Below are positions 26,293 to 41,684 of a stretch of 54,994 bases of DNA, one piece after another (positions within the stretch are counted from its first letter, which is position 1; every line of letters begins with the position of its first letter). Both the position numbers and the translations under genes were made by a program. The notes beneath the pieces are model-generated. The model saw only the letters and a program-made list of their open reading frames with translations, made no database searches and was not told the origin of the DNA. This DNA comes from Candidatus Parcubacteria bacterium (GTDB taxonomy: Bacteria > Patescibacteriota > Patescibacteriia > CAIXNZ01): positions 1-54,994 of the forward strand of contig JAPLYG010000007.1 in NCBI GenBank assembly GCA_026395685.1. Direction: 5' to 3'.

Positions 26293-26717
26293 GTCGGCAA
26301 GACCTTGATAGGCATCGCCTAAGCGGGCATAGGCAAACGAAAACGGCTCGCTACAAAACAAATGCTTTTTAAACAAAACAAAAAATACTCTGTAAAACAG
26401 AGTATTTTTCTTTCCGAAATCTGCAGACAAGAATATCTGAATAAGGAATAATCTAGCCGGAGCCGGATTGGATCCTTTTTTAGATACCCATGCTTATCGT
26501 GCCTGCAGATTTCGAAAAACAATCAGGTTTGGATTGCTTCCCCAAAGTCGCTCAAATAGATGGTCATGCTGTTTTCAGGGGGAATAGAAACAGCTCTAAC
26601 CGCCAGTTGAGCGATACTTAAACTTATCATAATACAGAAAACTTGTCAATAGGATGACAAGCTTTCTTATTCTTGGCCCCAAAGGGGCCCTTTCAGGGCT
26701 TATTTTAGGGCAGATTA

Positions 26718-28975: not shown

Positions 28976-29086
28976 AAAATAATTAGCTTCAATGTAATTT
29001 TTTGCTAACATTAGCTAATATGACTTAAAAAATGGATTCTAGCTTTAATCTTAGCCTATAATTATACACTAACTGATAATAAACTT

Positions 29087-32701: not shown

Positions 32702-35700
32702 ATGATTTTCAATCAAACAAAGCCCTTGGAATTTGATAGCATACGCTTAAAATTAGCTTCGCCCGAAGTTATTAAAGGCTGGTCTTATGGGGAGGTGACT
32801 AAACCGGAAACCATAAATTATCGCACACAGAAGCCGGAAAAAGACGGTTTGTTTTGTGAGAAAATTTTTGGTCCCTCGAAAGATTGGGAGTGCTATTGCG
32901 GAAAATACAAAAAGATCAGATATAAAGGAATTATTTGTGATAAATGCGGAGTAGAAGTCACTCATTCCATGGTTAGGCGTGAAAGAATGGGTCATATTGA
33001 ATTGACTAGTCCGGTTACTCATATCTGGTTTTTACGCGGCGTGCCTTCACGCTTAGGTTTGATTTTGGATATCCCGGTTCAGAGTTTGGAAAAAGTTATT
33101 TATTTTGCCAATTTTATTATTATCAAGGTTGATGAAAATTTAAAAACCCAGGCGATGGAAGCTTTAAAGGAAGAATATAAGGGCAAGGTAAAGCAAATTG
33201 ACGCTAATTTTAAAAATAGGGTGAATCAGATTAAGGTCAATAAAGATCTAAAAGATAAAGAAAAAGATAAGAAAATTATTGCTTTAAATAAAGAAAAGGA
33301 TCTGGAGGCGGCCGAACTGGAAAAGGAATATATAAAAACTGAGGCTGAGCTCAAAGATCTAAAGGTTAAAAAAATTATTACCGAGGATTTATATCAGGAT
33401 CTGTCATTAAAATTCGGACATATTTTTGAAGTCAGCATCGGAGCTGAAGCTGTTAAGAAACTGGCCGAAGCAATTGATTTGGAAAAATTAGAGAAGAAGT
33501 TAAACGCCGATGTAGAAGAAGCAGTTGGGGCAAAAAAGGAAAGATTGGTAAAAAGAATTAAGCTGGTAAAAAATTTGGTAAAAAATAAAATCAGGCCGGA
33601 ATGGATGATTATGACGAGTGTTCCGGTTATTCCTCCTGATTTGCGGCCGATGGTGCCTTTGGATGGCGGTCGTTTTGCCACTTCTGATTTAAATGATTTA
33701 TATAGACGCGTAATTAACCGCAATAACAGATTAAAAAAATTAAAAGAATTAAACGCTCCGGAAGTTATTATCCGCAATGAAAAAAGAATGCTTCAGGAAG
33801 CGATTGATGCTTTATTGGATAATAGTGCGCGCCATACTAAAACAACTACGGCTTCAACCGGACAAAAAAGACAATTAAAATCCATTGCTGATATTTTAAA
33901 AGGCAAGCAGGGTCGTTTCCGTCAGAACTTACTGGGTAAAAGAACTGATTATTCCGGACGCTCAGTAATTGTTGTCGGCCCTAATTTAAATCTGTCTCAA
34001 TGCGGCTTGCCCAAAAGAATGGCTTTGGAATTATTCAAGCCTTTTATCATCAGCCAGTTAATTAAACGTGAATTTGTACATAATATAAGAAGCGCTAATC
34101 GTTTTATTGAAAGCAACAGGCCAGAAGTCTGGGATATTTTGGAAGAAGTCGTGAAAGACGCTCATGTCCTTTTGAATCGTGCACCGACCCTCCATCGTTT
34201 GGGTATTCAGGCATTTAAGCCCATTTTAATCGAAGGTAAAGCTATCCAGCTTCATCCTTTGGTTTGCGCTGCTTTTAATGCTGATTTTGACGGCGATCAA
34301 ATGGCTGTCCATGTGCCTTTAACTGAGCAGGCAAAACTGGAAGCAAAAGAAATAATGCTTTCTTCCAAGAATTTACTCAAGCCTGCTACTGGTAATCCTA
34401 TTACTACTCCAAGAATGGATATTGTCTGGGGCTGCTATTATATTACAGCTTTAGAAAAACGGGAAAAACCGAAAATGTTCGGATCTTTTGAAGAAGCGGT
34501 TTTAGCCTACAATTCCAAGGTGATCTCTATCCAGGAAGAAATTGAAGTCCGTGAAATTCTGCCGGGGAAAACTAAAGTTGAAAGGATAAAAACCAATGTC
34601 GGCCGTATTTTATTTAATCGCGTTTTGCCCAAAGAAATCCCATATTTTAATGATCAGGTTGATACCAAAAAATTAGGCGATTTGATTAAATATGTTTTAG
34701 AAATTTTAGGCAAGGAACCGACTGCTAAGCTGCTTGATGATATAAAAAATTTGGGCTTTACCTATTTGACAATCAGCGGGTATTCCTGGGGCATGAATGA
34801 TTTGCCGGATTTAACTGGTAAAAAAGTACTTATAACTGAAGGCAATAAGCAGATTGATGAAGTTAATGAACAATATTTACAAGGTTTATTAACAAAGAGC
34901 GAACGTCATTCCAAAATAATTGAAATCTGGACAGCGATTAAGGATAAAATAGTTCAACTGGGTAAAGATGCTTTGAATAAAGAAGGCCCGGTATATTCCA
35001 TGGTTACTTCCGGCGCTCGCGGTTCTTGGGCCCAGGTTACACAGATGGTTGGTATGAAAGGCTTGGTGTCCAATCCTGCCGGTGAAATTATTGAATTGCC
35101 TGTCAAAGCCAGCTTTAAAGAAGGTTTTGATGTGCTGGAATATTTTATTTCCACTCATGGTTCCCGTAAAGGCTTATCTGATACTGCGTTAAGAACAGCT
35201 AATGCCGGTTATTTAACCCGTCGTTTAGTGGATGTCTCTCAGGACGTGGTAATCTTGGAAGAAGACTGCGGTGATAAAAAAGGAATGGTATATACCAAAA
35301 AAGACAGCGATGAAATCGGCGTTAATTTGCTGGAGCGCGTTTGGGGCAGAGTTTGTCTGGAAAAGATAACTGATCCCAAAAGCGGTGAAGTAATTGTTGA
35401 TAAAGACCAGTTAATTACTGAAGCAGTAGTCCGTAAATTAAAGGATATTGAATTGCCGCAAGTTACTGTCCGTTCTGTGTTAACCTGCAGATTGACAAAA
35501 GGCGTTTGCCAAAAATGCTATGGTTATGATTTAGCTTACAATGAAATGGTTAAGCTGGGAGTCGCAATCGGCATTATTGCCGCGCAAAGTATCGGTGAAC
35601 CAGGTACACAGCTGACAATGAGAACTTTTCATACTGGTGGTGTTGCCGGCACTGATATTACTCAGGGCTTGCCCAGAGTAGAAGAATTATTTGAAGCTCG

Positions 35701-36604
35701 TCCGCCAAAACGCAAGGCAACTTTAGCTGAAGAAGACGGATTAGTCAGTATCTCAGATGCGCCTAAGCAAATTGAAAATGCTAGCGGAAAAGTAATTTTA
35801 AGCACTAGCCACGGCCAAAAGATTTTAAAAATAAAGTATGATGATGTTGATGAAGCTTCATATTCTTTTAAGGGCGATAAACCGGCTCTAAAAATTAAAG
35901 ACGGAGACAAGGTGGAAAAAGATGAAATCCTTTTTAAAGTGGGCCGCACCGAGATTAAAGCAAAAAACGCAGGCATTGTTAAAGTCGGTGAAAAAAATAT
36001 TAAAATCATCAGTAATGTCCAAAAAGAAAAAGAATATATTATCCCGACAGGATATCGCTTATGGGCAAAAGAAGGGGATTTTGTTAAAAAAGGCGACCAA
36101 TTGACCGAAGGCAGTTTGGATTTGCATCAACTTTATAAGCTTAAAGGCAGAGATGAAGTAAAACGTTATGTCGTTAAAGAAATTCAATATATTTATGCTT
36201 CCCAGGGCCAAAGATTAAATGAAAAGCATATTGAAGTAATCATTAAACAGTTATTCAGCAGGGTCATGATTAAAGATGCCGGCGATACCAATTTATTGCC
36301 CGGTGAAATAGTCGAAAAAGCAGAATTTGAAGAAGCAAATCTGGAATTAAAAGCAGTTAATAGAAAGGCAACTTGTGAAGATTTATTTTTGGGAATTACT
36401 AAAGTTTCATTGACCACCCGCAGTTTCTTATCTGCTGCGTCTTTCCAGGAAACCTCTCGCGTCCTGATCAATGCTGCCTTAACCGGCAAAGTTGATAAAC
36501 TCGAAGGCTTAAAGGAAAATGTAATTATTGGACGGTTGATTCCGGCTGGCACAGGTTTTCGGAAAAAGGTAAAAGAAGTGAAAGTTGCCACGAATGAAGA
36601 ATAA
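32702..36604 (+). CDS. rpoC: RNA polymerase beta' subunit
   Basis: [50 protein letters not shown]. Confidence 0.98.
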
Positions 36605-36619
36605 TTAAAACAGTCATAT

Positions 36620-36649
36620 AAAAAACACTCCCTGCGGGGAGTGTTTTTT
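36620..36649 (+). terminator. Intrinsic terminator after rpoC
   Basis: AAAAAACACTCCC-TGCG-GGGAGTGTTTTTT. Confidence 0.8.
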
Positions 36650-36915
36650 GTTATTTGAAAAATTGCCTATGAAGCAGGTGTGTGAGTTTAGAGCTAAGCT
36701 TTTAGGAAAGCGCATAATAACACCTTAAATATATAATAATGTTTTAATAAAGTCAGTAGCTTTAAATCAAAAAATCCAATACATTTGCTGGCGTAGCCCG
36801 CAAGATAAATATTGCCAGCTATTTTGCCTGCGGTAGCTTGTGTATACAATTAGCTAAAAACAGGAGAAAATTTCATTTTTAAGTTAGATAAATATCAGAA
36901 ATTAGTCAAAATCCA

Positions 36916-37073
36916 TTGACAAAACAACTTTCATAATTATGATATTTTGCCAATTTTAGCCAAAATGACCCAAGAGACTCTTGACAGGTCCATTTAGATT
37001 TGCTATACTGGCTAATCAAAGTTAAGAAGGAATAGGCGTTTATCTTGACAAAATTTCAAAAATGTGCTATACT
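36916..37073 (+). promoter_or_regulatory. Three tandem sigma70-type promoters
   Basis: TTGACA at 36916, 36981 and 37045 with TATGAT (N16), TGnTATACT (N17) and TGnTATACT (N17); about 65-bp spacing. Confidence 0.75.
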
Positions 37074-37100
37074 TATAAATCACCTTGAAAATATAAAAGC

Positions 37101-37431
37101 ATTTAGTCGACAGAAATATGGGGGTAGTAGTGCATCAGAATAGTAGAATTTTTTGGCCTAGCTGAAAAATCTCTACGACTGGTGTTTAACTGGTAAGACT
37201 CTGTTCTATACCAGCCGTTCCGCTTGCGGAACAACACCTCCATATTCCTGTCTGCTAAATTCAGTTTAAGTTCCGAGCCAAGGGCAGGCAGATAGTTCTT
37301 AATTATTTAAAATGTACATTATAAATTTAGAGAACTTATCTAAAGCCCTTTGTCTGGAACTTAAATAAAAATTCGTTGCCTGATTCCAAGACGGGATAGT
37401 CTCGTGTAGATTATTTTGTCTTGAAATGAGG
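37101..37431 (+). ncRNA. Structured RNA/leader: multi-branched domain plus two long hairpins
   Basis: 37101-37125 pairs with 37236-37260 enclosing three helices; hairpins 37265-37365 and 37379-37431. Confidence 0.55.
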
Positions 37432-37469
37432 AAGTGAATTTTTTTCAACAACTAGCAAAGGAGCATATA

Positions 37470-37598
37470 ATGTTTCAGGTAAAGTTCACGGAAGAAAACG
37501 GGGGATACATCAAGACCCTCGACACCCTGGCAGAGGTCAATTTCTGCCTCCACCTCAAGCTCATCGAGCATGACAGCGTCAAGCTGCTCCTCGGATGA
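37470..37598 (+). CDS. 42-aa small protein MFQVKFTEENGGYIKTLDTLAEVNFCLHLKLIEHDSVKLLLG
   Basis: AAGGAG RBS, C-ending codon bias matching the two downstream genes; below ORF-track cutoff. Confidence 0.65.
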   Translation: MFQVKFTEENGGYIKTLDTLAEVNFCLHLKLIEHDSVKLLLG

Positions 37599-37759
37599 AC
37601 TACCTCTAGAGGCCTAAACAAAGGCCCTTCACCTGAGTACAAAATAAAAATTTTGTCTTCAGGCGAGGTTCCCAAACCTCTTGATCGTATAAACAGTTAA
37701 TTAGTGTTTTTTCATAATCACAAAAACGTCTGCCAACCACCCTTAAGGAGGGATTTACC

Positions 37760-38527
37760 ATGGCAAAGAAAACCGCGTCCAAGAAAGAAGCGACCAAACC
37801 CGCCACCACCAACCTGACCCCGACCCCGGCCGAGACCCCCGAGCAGAACGGCAAGCAGTCGGAACTCACGTACCTCTGCTCCGCCTGCTCCAAGACCTAC
37901 GGCACGGCCAGCGAAGGCGTCACCACCGACGAAGACGGCAAGCCCGACTACACGAACGCCAAGATGTGGGCCAAACCGAAAACCGTGGGCGCCGAGCACG
38001 AGCCCGAGGCCATCTGCGCCGAGTGCAAGGCTCTCGCCGAGGAAGAGGCCAAGGCCGCCGGCAATCAGCCCCCGGTCTACCACCCGCTCCTGGCCACGAT
38101 CGAGCGCGACAAGCGCTGGGTCGAGAACAGGGCCCGCTACGAGGAACGGAAGCTGAACGCCGAGACCAATCGGGACAACTTCCTGGGCAAGCTCTACGAC
38201 CAGAGCCTGCGCACCGTCCGCGAAGACGTGGTCTGCCACGTCTGCGGCAAGTACCATGGATTCATCCAGTACTTCAAACCGCGGGGCGAGCGCTTCACCG
38301 TGATCGAGCACGCCACCACCGCCGTGAAGGACGGGAAGACCATGGTCCTGCCGATCTGCCGCTCCTGCAGAGCCGAAGCCGCCGAGGCCCTGGGTGACCA
38401 GTACCACGACGTCTACTTCCGCGAAGCAGTCCGGCAGACCGCCGACGCCAACGCGAAGGCCGAGAAGTTCGCGGCCTTCGTGAAACCCGCAACCCCGCGC
38501 TACATCCCGCGCGGCAAAAGGGGCTAA
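37760..38527 (+). CDS. Hypothetical double zinc-ribbon protein (4 CxxC)
   Basis: AAGGAGG RBS; CSAC, CAEC, CHVC, CRSC; strong G/C third-position bias in this frame. Confidence 0.8.
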   Translation: MAKKTASKKEATKPATTNLTPTPAETPEQNGKQSELTYLCSACSKTYGTASEGVTTDEDGKPDYTNAKMWAKPKTVGAEHEPEAICAECKALAEEEAKAAGNQPPVYHPLLATIERDKRWVENRARYEERKLNAETNRDNFLGKLYDQSLRTVREDVVCHVCGKYHGFIQYFKPRGERFTVIEHATTAVKDGKTMVLPICRSCRAEAAEALGDQYHDVYFREAVRQTADANAKAEKFAAFVKPATPRYIPRGKRG

Positions 38528-38711
38528 CCAGCTCCTCATCTTGTTCGGCAGACTGATCAACATCATGTTGGCGGGGCATTTCATCATCCGATGATTGCCC
38601 CGCCTCTTCATCTTAAAACAGAATTTTACATTGTGTTTTTAGACGAAGAAGATTCCAGTAAGTAAGTTCATAAAAAACAAACATTTAACAGCCCTAAGGG
38701 GAGGAGGAAAC

Positions 38712-39518
38712 ATGTCGAAAGCAAGCAAACTGGCTCGCCAGGCTCGTAAGAACGGGCAGGTCATGCAGGATCTTCAGACTCAGGAAGGCATGGTCAGGTG
38801 CGTCTACTGCAACACCGTCGGCCATCGTGACGAGATCACGATCGACCCGGACACCGATGCTGTGCGCAAGACTTTCCATGCTCTCCCGCGACCCCTTTCG
38901 GGTTCGACCGAGGGTATCCAGGCCGTGTGCATCTACTGCACCTTCACGCACCGCCAGGACCTGCGCAAGCAGTTTCCCGAGTGGTTCACGACCCACAAGA
39001 ATCTGCCGGTCTACGTGCATCTGCTCGAGCAGGAGATCGAGTGGGGCAAGAAGTATCCGCCGGCCATGAAGCGGGTCAACCAGTACATGGAACAGCTGCA
39101 CATCGTCCCGAACTCCTGGCAGAAATGCCACAAGTGCGGGAAGACGCACGGCGAGGTCTTCATGACTAGCTTTCTGCCCAACCTGCAGTTCCGCTGCGCC
39201 AACGTCGCCTGGGTTCTCGGCTTCCACCAGACCCTCGCCGAAGTGATGGAGCACCTGATCTGCCAGGATTGCCGCGAGACTAAAAACCAGGAAGGTATTC
39301 GTACCTTTTACCTGGAACGGACTCTGGACTTCCTGTCGGAAAAAGAGGCCAGGATCAAGCGCTTCTACCTGCACGGCAAGACTCAGCAGAAGAACTCGGC
39401 GACCGCGTCGACTCCGGCGACTGCGAAGCCCCAGGTGTACAAGGGAAATGATCCCAAATACCGGGGCGTTCCCACGCAGTTCATTCCCAAGGCGGTATTT
39501 GGCAGCAAGCACCGCTAA
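38712..39518 (+). CDS. Hypothetical double zinc-ribbon protein (4 CxxC), likely paralog of the previous gene
   Basis: GGAGGAGG RBS; CVYC, CIYC, CHKCGKTHG, LICQDCRE; strong G/C third-position bias. Confidence 0.8.
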   Translation: MSKASKLARQARKNGQVMQDLQTQEGMVRCVYCNTVGHRDEITIDPDTDAVRKTFHALPRPLSGSTEGIQAVCIYCTFTHRQDLRKQFPEWFTTHKNLPVYVHLLEQEIEWGKKYPPAMKRVNQYMEQLHIVPNSWQKCHKCGKTHGEVFMTSFLPNLQFRCANVAWVLGFHQTLAEVMEHLICQDCRETKNQEGIRTFYLERTLDFLSEKEARIKRFYLHGKTQQKNSATASTPATAKPQVYKGNDPKYRGVPTQFIPKAVFGSKHR

Positions 39519-39585
39519 ACAACAAGCGCCCACCATGGCTATAAGCTAGGTGGGCTCCATACTAAAAAACATGATCAGTTATAGC

Positions 39586-39614
39586 TTGACAAGATTATTA
39601 TAATCTGCTATCAT
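39586..39614 (+). promoter_or_regulatory. sigma70 promoter of the large non-coding unit
   Basis: TTGACA-N17-TATCAT with extended TG. Confidence 0.7.
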
Positions 39615-39620
39615 AAGATC

Positions 39621-41106
39621 ACGCTTTTCAGTAAGGAACAAGGGATATCAGTCAGAAAACTCAAAGACCTATGGCCATCGCTCGGCTCAGGTCTGCAACC
39701 CCCAATGGAGGTTCCCATGTTCACGAGCGGATTTGTCCGATGAATAGCCCACAACGTGGCTAGCCGTCCCGGGCATAAAACGGGCGTTGTTTGTCACCGT
39801 TTTGCACGTTAGCAAAATGGCGTAGTGTTGAAGGAGCAGGCCTTCCGGATGATTCGTGATCATCACTATGGAGCCGGGATTTAAATACGGCTCCACCTCA
39901 TCCAAGAACGCAAATCTTGCAAAGTAATAAAACTGCTGAACTGGCAGAGAAACAAGTTTACGTTCTTAGATGAGGTAGAACATTGAAAGAGAAAGAAAAA
40001 AAATTTTAATATAGACTGAAGCAAAGGTTCGCGGCAGAGAAATCTGCTGCGAGAGGTGAAGGCAACCACAAAGGAGCAAGGATGAAACCACGTTTTCCGA
40101 GTGGCTTTACCGCACGCCTAGGGACGCCTGGTCTCCGCAATGCGGAGTCCCGCCCCGAATAACCAGGCGCCGTATTCTTCACACCCGCAGAGTCTGACAA
40201 AGCGAAAGGAGAGGTTGCAGTGGCAGTGCTGAACTGGCTGCTGGAAGTTATTTGCCGCCTGATCCCGAAAAAGATCCGGGTGACGAGGCTTTCGGTGGCT
40301 TACTGGTTCAACGAGCACACCGTGCTTTTGAGCCAAGAGGTTTCTGTCAATGTGCAACCGCAGTCATTCGGCGACTGTATGGTGCGTTGATCAGATACCT
40401 TCAGGACGACAACATCTTCACAAAAGTACTGCTCCGCCCAAAGCGGCCTACGTCGGCTGCTAGGAGTCAGTAACTGACTGTTCTGGACATTGCCGGGGTG
40501 CGTTTGAAAGAAATATCGTTTTTACCCACGGCAATTGTTCGGACCAGTTTTTCCGAAAACCAAAGCGGGAGGGTATAAGATGCTGAGCCCGTTTGCATTC
40601 AAGACTAAACAGGGTTCCTGGTCCCCCTGCACAAAACCAGGCGCAAAGAGCTTCGCCCACTGAGCCATAATCAGCGGGCAACAGCAGAGCAGAGAGTTAA
40701 CGGGACAGCGTTCCCTTGCACGGCTTGCTCAAAAAACAGGGGATCTACGTTCGGGCTGTCCGAACAAATGACCCACGAAGTAAAAACGAGCAGCTGACTC
40801 CTTTTGTCCCGCATCGGTACCCCCGCCGACCAAAAAGGGGATTCGCGGAAACGCATGACGGAAGGAACGACCTTGTTCTCCGCCTGCGTTCCTCGATACC
40901 TGCTGACAAGCGCCGACATTTGTTCGGACCTTACCACGGCGCTTGTGCAGCGAGCCGTATGCCGGATGCGTTGGACCATCCTAAAAACCGGCCGAAAAAA
41001 AAGTGTCTGGGGTTTCCTCTGAACCCAAGCTTGCATGGCGCAGGCAGAAAAAACAGAGGCCTGGGCGGAAGCGATCGTCACCCGACGATGCGCTTCCGCC
41101 CTTTTT
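39621..41106 (+). ncRNA. Candidate large (~1.48 kb) structured non-coding RNA of unknown class
   Basis: Promoter and terminator bound it; no convincing ORF; continuous helices, A-rich linkers and long-range pairings. Confidence 0.65.
41063..41106 (+). terminator. Strong intrinsic terminator
   Basis: GGGCGGAAGCG-ATCGTC-ACCC-GACGAT-G-CGCTTCCGCCC-TTTTT. Confidence 0.8.
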
Positions 41107-41291
41107 AAATTAATGCGAATAGTATTTAGATTGCCTTAATAAAATTATCAATAAACAATTCTCAATCATCAAGCAATACCTAATACCAAAGACCTAATAA
41201 CCAAAACACATCTTTAATTTAGTATTTAAATGTTTTAATTTGTTTGGTTATTGAGAATTTATTATTTGATATTAGAAAAAGCGGTCTGAGC

Positions 41292-41345
41292 TATCATACC
41301 GAGTGAAACGAGGGAAATGGATTCCTTGCTTCGCTCTGAATGACA
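41292..41345. repeat. Degenerate copy of the REP-like TCAT…GAATGACA palindrome
   Basis: TCATACCGAGTGAAACGAGG…CCTTGCTTCGCTCTGAATGACA inside a terminator stem. Confidence 0.6.
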
Positions 41346-41378
41346 ACTAGACCGCTTTTTTTATATGTGTGTAGTAGT

Positions 41379-41684
41379 TTATTCAGAAACTGCTGCTGGC
41401 GCGCTCTTGCCTTTTAAGGCGTCTTTTAAAGCTTTGCCTGATTTGAATTTGGGGATGACAACTTCAGGAATATCAATTTTTTCATTAGGCTTCTGAGGAT
41501 TTACACCTTTACGCGCATGTCTGACTTTAGCGGAAAATGTTCCAAATCCGGTTAAGACTACTTCCTCCTGTTTTTTTAGAGTTTCAGTAATAGTATCCAG
41601 GCTGGTTTCCAGAATTTCTTCCACTTGTTTCTTAGTCAAATTTGTTTTGGAGGCAACGGCCTCGATTAAAGCTGCTTTGTTCAT
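41379..41684 (-). CDS. hup: DNA-binding protein HU
   Basis: MNKAALIEAVA, LTGFGTF, RKGVNP, PKFKSGKALKD. Confidence 0.95.
   Translation of the reverse strand: MNKAALIEAVASKTNLTKKQVEEILETSLDTITETLKKQEEVVLTGFGTFSAKVRHARKGVNPQKPNEKIDIPEVVIPKFKSGKALKDALKGKSAPAAVSE

Follow-up and report, generated by a model that had tools for sequence, protein, structure and literature searches.

A conserved leader RNA, variable basic proteins and a GC-rich non-coding tail between rpoC and HU: a possible cassette operon of Patescibacteria

We examined a block of elements that follows rpoC in Candidatus Parcubacteria bacterium, on contig JAPLYG010000007.1, of which the whole stretch of 54,994 nucleotides (nt) was analysed and is referred to as the window. 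The genome of the window comprises 1.24 Mb in 23 contigs with a GC content of 39.6%. The block spans from rpoC (32702–36604) to a convergent HU gene on the minus strand (41379–41684; Pfam Bac_DNA_binding, 2.6e-28), which is its conserved right border, and ymdB and rny lie beyond HU. Downstream of the intrinsic terminator of rpoC (36620–36649, plus strand; a perfect 13-bp stem and a U run, z −8.0), the plus strand carries three tandem promoters, a leader RNA of approximately 270 nt with two structured domains, a small open reading frame (ORF), two ORFs for zinc-ribbon proteins (ORF1 and ORF2) and a GC-rich non-coding tail. A preliminary description had taken these parts to be co-oriented and to belong together, and both points held, as the parts all run in one direction and the identical order of elements was found in 12 of the 13 genomes of the same family. 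It had also called the block an island; the same locus, however, recurs across the family and is not peculiar to this genome.

The leader lies between the tandem promoters and the first Shine-Dalgarno (SD) sequence, and its structure covaries. In an alignment of 13 genomes, RNAalifold predicted 65 pairs, 29 of them compensatory. Domain A (37102–37258, plus strand) has the closing helices P1 and P2, three inner hairpins and an invariant unpaired GUAGUAGU, and scored 132.8 bits with the covariance model R1. When we drew the structure of this domain ourselves on the 13 genomes, 88.3% of the cells were paired and 22 of the 50 pairs were changed on both sides; none of 500 shuffles reached any of the measures, and slid alignments gave 36–53% paired cells. 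A hand-drawn fourth helix of domain A was poorly aligned (53–57% paired) and is not claimed. Domain B (37262–37368, plus strand; RNAalifold columns 189–299) is a long hairpin with an invariant AAAUGUAC loop, and its pairs also include compensatory changes. Thus, the structured leader of the preliminary description is borne out, and it constitutes a new structured RNA family with strong covariation.

No described RNA accounted for the block. An Rfam cmscan of 36600–41400 at E≤10 returned eight chance-level matches, none to large-RNA families, and the models of large non-coding RNAs (OLE, GOLLD, ROOL, HEARO, group I and II introns and others) found no match in the same interval; over the whole window, only two tRNAs reached the gathering score. 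The leader was also considered as a 6S or signal recognition particle (SRP) RNA, and this was rejected, as the fold is branched and not a rod and RF00013, RF00169 and RF01854 had no match in the block. Elsewhere in the genome, RNase P RNA (99.7 bits, just below the cut-off) and tmRNA were located, and the 6S and the small and large bacterial SRP models found nothing at E≤1 in this genome, which is rated 100% complete. The SRP RNA of the lineage may be too divergent for the Rfam models. Another R1 match in the window (26369–26507, minus strand; 28 bits) was discarded, its score being like that of reverse-strand noise.

The conservation of the locus was followed through the lineage. DNA of its 5′ part was matched in 12 of the 13 family genomes, and in the loci that were fetched the order is invariable: rpoC, two to three consensus promoters, the leader RNA, an SD with the small ORF, an RNA hairpin that we term hairpin C, and a GC-rich ORF, followed by 0.8–2 kb of GC-rich, ORF-poor sequence and then HU. 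A 16-mer of domain A was present in all 14 loci examined, and hairpin C lay within 1 kb of it in 12; the other two loci are interrupted by contig ends. An exact 16-mer scan of the genome contigs gave 85 stretches, and BLAST of 80 of them recognized 8 true relatives, the others being taken as chance. A scan with R1 of 151 genomes drawn from the class recognized the leader in 7, namely in two of the three genomes of family f1 besides the window's own, and more weakly in all three of family f16 (28–32 bits) and in one further genome. Still weaker matches (17–20 bits) were located upstream of zinc-ribbon-like genes in G086 and G247 (families f72 and f15), and in G086 a promoter, A-like and B-like domains, a hairpin, a small ORF, the zinc-ribbon gene and a structured 3′ region could be recognized by eye. 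These sequences weakly suggest distant look-alikes of the locus in three other families (f16, f72 and f15). Separately, one f16 locus (L122, G097:C34, minus strand) has tandem RNA domains, each closed by a helix of the AAGAAAGAUUUGGAGG / CCUCCAAUUCUUUCUU type, one of them upstream of a small membrane-protein ORF, with a tRNA-like sequence between the domains. Among the best-ranked matches of a full-text literature search, which was not exhaustive, none dealt with such a locus or with structured RNAs of these lineages.

GC content rises sharply within the block, to 0.55–0.69 over 37.7–41.1 kb versus 0.30–0.44 in the flanks, and GC at third codon positions (GC3) is 0.89 in ORF1 and 0.80 in ORF2 versus 0.33–0.39 in rpoB, rpoC, HU, ymdB and rny. 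This jump is the sole support for an assembly chimera, or a contaminant contig joined to a Patescibacteria contig, a concern that the preliminary description had raised together with that of breakpoints at the edges. Contigs of other studies, however, bridge both edges, X3 record 16 joining 36107–36649 to 36848–37419 on the rpoC side and X4 record 26 joining 40569–41106 to 41207–41608 on the HU side, and independent genomes show the identical architecture. The block is therefore not chimeric; an artefact of this kind has a negligible probability and is refuted for practical purposes. The GC-richness may reflect a foreign or recombining gene pool, and GC-biased conversion is a candidate cause.

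Expression signals at the locus are very strong. The three tandem promoters (36916–36943, 36981–37009 and 37045–37073, plus strand), which the preliminary description had pointed out, each match the sigma-70 consensus at 11 of 12 positions and are kept upstream of the leader in relatives, and a fourth 11/12 match, with a TG extension, lies within the tail (39586–39614, plus strand). Promoter-like sites numbered 18 versus 4.9 ± 2.4 in shuffles. Among the sequencing runs listed as containing the stretch, none was of RNA. The tail promoter is peculiar to this genome (1 of 12 tails scanned), and in the relatives the tail would be the 3′ part of the operon transcript. A conserved TTAGCYAA-N2-TTAGCYAA-like motif stands at 36946–36963, upstream of the second promoter of the operon; such a palindrome also occurs upstream of the rpoB promoter (29001–29018), and a similar TTAGCYAA-type motif precedes the promoter of an array of small genes in a relative (G002:C89). 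The palindrome may be a shared regulator site or an UP-like site. The SD sequences were as strong as had been claimed, being of the AGGAG type before all three ORFs.

Hairpins part the cistrons. Those listed in the preliminary description all fold (z −3.7 to −6.3), and the terminator of rpoC and that at 41063–41106 fold as well. Hairpin C (37379–37433, plus strand) is an RNA duplex rich in G·U pairs, about 23 bp long and capped by a CGUGU loop (−24.8 kcal/mol, z −5.8). It precedes the small ORF of 42 amino acids (aa) (37470–37598, plus strand; SD and ATG, GC3 0.77), whose position is kept in relatives and whose sequence is not conserved; 3′ of this ORF, a degenerate second hairpin C (37627–37668, plus strand; direct repeat D13, −18.1 kcal/mol, z −5.4) was found, and two further inter-cistronic hairpins (38570–38649, plus strand; z −6.1 and −4.2) follow ORF1. 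We collected 16 distinct copies of hairpin C, in which the inner stem and loop are near-invariant and the outer stems covary. Because it holds four to five G·U pairs, hairpin C folds only as sense-strand RNA and not as bottom-strand DNA. A duplex of this length is of a size that RNase III could cut, and rnc is present in the genome (14650–15042; PF14622, 129 bits); hairpin C marks cistron boundaries and is a likely RNase III-type site. Its near-invariant inner stem and loop, maintained across genera, suggest a specific binding partner beyond duplex recognition. Three tandem copies, one ahead of each GC-rich ORF, were found in G002:C89, and another copy was found in the window's own genome (G000:C19). 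These copies belong to cassette arrays separate from the main locus (L114, G002:C89, 1550–3230; L113, G000:C19, 1–480), which are built on one plan: a single promoter, then hairpin C, a conserved 5′ untranslated region (UTR), a GC-rich small ORF and a GC hairpin, three times over. No ORF of these two arrays matched Pfam.

ORF1 (37760–38527, plus strand, 255 aa) and ORF2 (38712–39518, plus strand, 268 aa) represent subfamilies 1 and 2 of one profile family and have in common four CxxC pairs and a CGKxHG motif, and their direct alignment covered only the second ribbon (E 0.001). Judged from their sequences, they are two distantly related paralogs within a new family of double zinc-ribbon proteins. 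The invariant residues of ORF1 are C40, C43, C86, C89, C159, C162, H166, G167 and C200. Its AlphaFold2 model (predicted local distance difference test [pLDDT] 89.9) places strands at each of the CxxC pairs and has disordered basic ends; four invariant or near-invariant CxxC pairs on modelled strands are consistent with zinc ribbons, and no Pfam zinc-ribbon family was found at cut-off. When the model was compared with PDB by Foldseek, nothing reached E≤1e-3, and ribosomal proteins with zinc ribbons were among the weak matches. Among 1.84 billion representatives, a profile search identified 29 zinc-ribbon proteins at E≤1e-3, and the family matched in 8 of 401 genomes sampled from the class; the sole organism-named member among the clusters that were read belongs to Candidatus Buchananbacteria. 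ESM Atlas, queried with the homologue P0006, gave nothing at or above 0.9, and a metagenome protein scan with ORF2 gave 110 pattern matches, none of which was a relative. The cargo proteins had only chance-level matches in Pfam, PHROGs, PADLOC and NCBIfam, and nothing significant among PDB sequence profiles. One source calls P0010, a relative of ORF1, a peptide methionine sulfoxide reductase MsrB, a name that the CxxC pairs probably prompted in error.

In six sister loci (G005, G006, G007, G010, G011 and G013), the same slot carries an unrelated protein. These loci retain the leader, hairpin C, modules of the tail and, for the most part, the mini-ORF. These six proteins form one family with 16 invariant columns, modelled with a beta-rich core and disordered Lys/Arg-rich ends (pLDDT 71.3; core 80–95), and one of the six ends in KTGT, a motif common in the zinc-ribbon family. 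The co-occurrence of the zinc-ribbon pair with a giant RNA that the preliminary description had predicted therefore failed. Cargo also diverges rapidly: between genomes of the same genus, RpoC is 86% identical and ORF1 homologs only 30%.

The tail (39621–41106, plus strand) would be transcribed in this genome as an RNA of about 1.5 kb ending at the terminator at 41063–41106. Between 39.6 and 41.1 kb no long ORF exists, whether the standard code is applied or any one stop codon is reassigned, and an alternative genetic code was rejected, since none of the 12 tails gains a long frame when TGA, TAG or TAA is read as a sense codon. The tail lacks the GC3 periodicity seen in ORF1 and ORF2, except at 40220–40340, and folds more stably than shuffles (z −3.3 and −5.1), as ORF1 also does (z −4.5). 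Of the highly expressed locus with a large RNA that had been proposed, then, the very strong expression signals and a tail that is, by its sequence, non-coding and structured stand; the claim of a giant RNA has to be qualified, because the tail is not wholly free of ORFs. It holds two SD-led mini-ORFs (39717–39743 and 40082–40162, plus strand) and a possible ORF of 56 aa (40220–40390, plus strand) with a good SD and a coding-like GC3 of 0.78, the end of which (QPQSFGDCM) has a counterpart in the G006 tail with 93% identity at the nucleotide level. The mini-ORF, M-x-F-x-S-G-F-T, whose end reads F-x-S-G-F-(T), was found in 8 of 12 tails, with two copies in the window and a variant in G010. Its codon pattern was matched 10 times on the forward strand of 18,587 nt, versus 0.3 times (maximum 2) in 200 shuffles and twice on the reverse strand, and its variation is confined to third codon positions.

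Only short parts of the tail are maintained, and against same-genus genomes about 95 nt, the hairpin of module M3, could be aligned. Module M1, a hairpin whose loop, of the UAAAGCAAUUUG type, is conserved, was found in eight genomes of both cargo types; M2 (39764–39822, plus strand) in G000, which is the window's genome, G006, G012 and L128; and M3 (39892–39979, plus strand) in G000, G001, G002 and G009/L128, that is, in four of six loci with zinc-ribbon cargo and none of six with the beta-rich family. In the G001/G002/G009 tail alignment, 17 of 97 predicted pairs are compensatory, and an apparent TGA read-through in G001/G009 was accounted for by a compensatory hairpin change. The 75 nt just before M3 (39823–39897) give way to 102 different letters in contigs from three further runs, with flanks 94–99% identical, and tail variants of roughly 95–99% identity were seen in runs X2–X4. 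Within the genome, the tail matched only itself.

The rapid turnover of the tail and its evenly high GC at all three phases would also be expected of a by-product of frequent recombination, through GC-biased gene conversion, or of decayed genes, and recombining bacterial genes are reported to be GC-richer as a tendency (PMC4450053), which we count in favour of this explanation. We nevertheless hold a tail without function of its own to be very unlikely. Blastx against 83 cargo-family sequences recovered no cargo remnants (best E 0.36), and decay of cargo genes was rejected on this ground; moreover, the mini-ORF and the hairpin modules are conserved across genera, the hairpins carry compensatory changes, and in this genome a consensus promoter and a strong terminator frame the tail.

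A direct repeat of 13–16 nt flanks the block, reading TGGGGGTAGTAGT at 37119 and TGTGTGTAGTAGT at 41366, and here the preliminary description, which had seen no att-like ends, has to be corrected. The 13-mer TGKGKGTAGTAGT occurs at these two positions only in the 1.24-Mb genome. The left copy (37116–37131, plus strand) forms the 5′ strand of leader helix P2 and the junction and includes the invariant unpaired GUAGUAGU; the right copy (41363–41378, plus strand) sits in the interval from the HU stop codon to the terminator of that gene and is conserved beside that stop codon in 8 of 12 loci of relatives, as well as in L128. In G011 and G013, both copies are lengthened by the same TGG. Because HU is encoded on the other strand, the 3′UTR of its mRNA carries the complement of the repeat, and duplexes between the leader and this 3′UTR were predicted at −14.8 to −28.3 kcal/mol versus shuffled means of −6.6 to −11.7. 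The repeat may mark a contact between two RNAs, a site shared by one protein, or the scar of a past recombination.

Two rival explanations of the locus start from this repeat. In one, the leader would work chiefly in trans as a small RNA: the invariant segment at its 5′ end would pair with the 3′UTR of HU mRNA, or HU mRNA would open P2, so that the operon would be coupled to expression of the nucleoid protein. The conserved complement next to the HU stop codon, the identical TGG extension of both copies, the predicted duplex energies and the unpaired state of GUAGUAGU in the leader model all speak for it. On the other hand, the repeat was not seen in 4 of the 12 tails, although segment ends may have missed it there; the duplex of this genome contains two mismatches, and one shuffle was equally good; and a shared DNA-binding site explains the repeat just as well. 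We therefore think it improbable that trans action is the leader's main role.

The other rival is an integrated mobile element, or a defence or conflict hot spot, with foreign cargo exchanged horizontally between the direct repeats. A flanking repeat unique in the genome, cargo GC3 of 0.8–0.9 in a genome at 0.33–0.39, one slot filled by two unrelated families and cargo that diverges fast relative to RpoC would fit such an origin. So would the finding that the tail of other samples differs by 1–1.3% over 39625–40211 and their rpoC and ymdB contigs by 7–12%, these contigs not necessarily being of one strain. Nevertheless, no integrase or transposase was found among the ORFs or Pfam matches of the block, as the preliminary description had maintained, and no phage gene by ORFs, Pfam or PHROGs; no PADLOC family rose above chance, and a locus at the same place exists in 12 of 13 family genomes. 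The left repeat is embedded in a conserved leader RNA and the right one in the HU 3′UTR. Flanking direct repeats are present, and neither an integrase or excisionase nor an empty site was found; we consider a mobile origin a poor prospect. A type III toxin–antitoxin system of the ToxIN kind was likewise rejected, as 36600–41300 contains no tandem repeat family and no PADLOC match was above chance.

Our preferred interpretation, held tentatively and at somewhat less than even confidence, is that Patescibacteria of the Falkow-/Buchananbacteria type have at this locus a "leader plus cassette" operon, conserved in the lineage, transcribed very strongly, controlled by its leader and processed at its hairpins, and not a recently acquired island. 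Tandem consensus promoters would drive the leader of about 270 nt and then cistrons parted by hairpin C, first a small variable peptide and next one or two basic, fast-diverging proteins, and the operon would end in a 0.8–2 kb hairpin-rich non-coding tail with the conserved SD-led mini-ORF. The leader would be a cis-acting control element, in its simplest form a site where the encoded basic protein binds in feedback, by analogy with ribosomal-protein operons; hairpin C would be an RNase III-type processing and stabilizing site. The tail would act as a stabilizing and/or protein-bound RNA, made in this genome as a separate transcript of about 1.5 kb, and the cargo between the conserved flanks would be exchanged or very fast-evolving. 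Several points weigh against this interpretation. The case for autoregulation through the leader is one of analogy alone; sensing of a ligand or action in trans are alternative roles for the leader, whose 5′ strand is complementary to the HU 3′UTR; the elevated cargo GC3 is left unexplained; and the leader matches outside the family are weak.

Second to the cassette operon, with which it overlaps, we rank a dedicated ribonucleoprotein (RNP), in which the zinc-ribbon or beta-rich proteins would bind the tail and/or the leader to give an abundant particle, OLE-like in kind. Structured RNA and a basic, tail-bearing protein occur together in every locus examined and are co-located in more distant families as well; zinc ribbons with disordered Lys/Arg tails would suit RNA binding partners of this kind; the tail is non-coding, structured and equipped here with its own promoter and terminator; and M3 was seen only with zinc-ribbon cargo. 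Against such a particle, the sequence of the tail is hardly kept even between members of one genus, M1, M2 and the mini-ORF accompany both protein families, the protein of G086 has only about 480 nt of non-coding sequence 3′ of its gene, and a tail promoter is present in only 1 of 12 tails. Comparison of the sequences supports a conserved association of structured RNA with a basic protein in several families. For a dedicated pair of the zinc-ribbon proteins and the giant RNA it offers no support, because two unrelated families fill the slot, turnover of the tail is rapid and both cargo types have most tail modules in common. We regard a dedicated RNP as a doubtful alternative, if a serious one.

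Patescibacteria, or the candidate phyla radiation (CPR), make up a large share of bacterial diversity, and their RNA biology is almost unexplored. What is new here is a covarying RNA family, two protein families for which Pfam, PHROGs, NCBIfam, PADLOC and PDB sequences offer no relatives, conserved elements in the form of a hairpin at cassette boundaries and a mini-ORF, and a conserved complementarity to HU mRNA, all under promoters that match the strongest of the window and adjoining core transcription genes. In the most far-reaching form, which we find rather unlikely, the locus would encode an undescribed, abundant RNA–protein system of the ultrasmall CPR bacteria, with leader and fast-evolving tail bound by exchangeable basic proteins, processing at dedicated hairpins, cross-wiring to HU via an RNA duplex, and a translated heptapeptide mini-ORF as a ribosome sensor. 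Should the RNAs and proteins turn out to build a particle or a feedback circuit, this component of the cell would define the lineage; should the cargo be a recombining conflict module, strain-level diversification of these organisms would for the first time become approachable. The extreme GC3 contrast also makes a clean test case for the upkeep of GC-rich genes in AT-rich genomes.

Among known systems, autoregulated ribosomal-protein operons combine strong promoters and a structured 5′ leader with small basic, often zinc-ribbon, RNA-binding proteins. By analogy, the present locus would resemble them in its strong promoters, conserved leader, basic proteins and site beside the rplKAJL-rpoBC cluster; it differs in that its proteins match no ribosomal or other family, outpace RpoC in evolution and are replaceable by an unrelated family. 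RNase III processing hairpins between cistrons occur in phage T7 early mRNA and in rRNA operons. Hairpin C is like these in being a duplex of about two helical turns between cistrons, repeated before each, in a genome with rnc, and unlike them in that its inner stem and loop are almost invariant across genera. Integron cassette arrays also place promoterless, unrelated small genes, each bounded by an imperfect hairpin, under a common promoter. However, no IntI tyrosine recombinase was found among the ORFs or Pfam matches, and hairpin C, unlike attC sites, is strand-specific at the RNA level and cannot fold as bottom-strand DNA. The OLE RNP of Firmicutes (PMC10898510, PMC9723947) is reported to contain a large non-coding RNA of about 600 nt with extensive sequence conservation, and its biochemistry is unknown. 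With it the locus shares a large, lineage-restricted bacterial non-coding RNA encoded beside genes for candidate partner proteins. It differs in having no match to OLE or another large-RNA family of Rfam at E≤10, in a tail that keeps short modules only and turns over within the genus, and in candidate partners that would be soluble zinc-ribbon or beta-rich proteins of new families.

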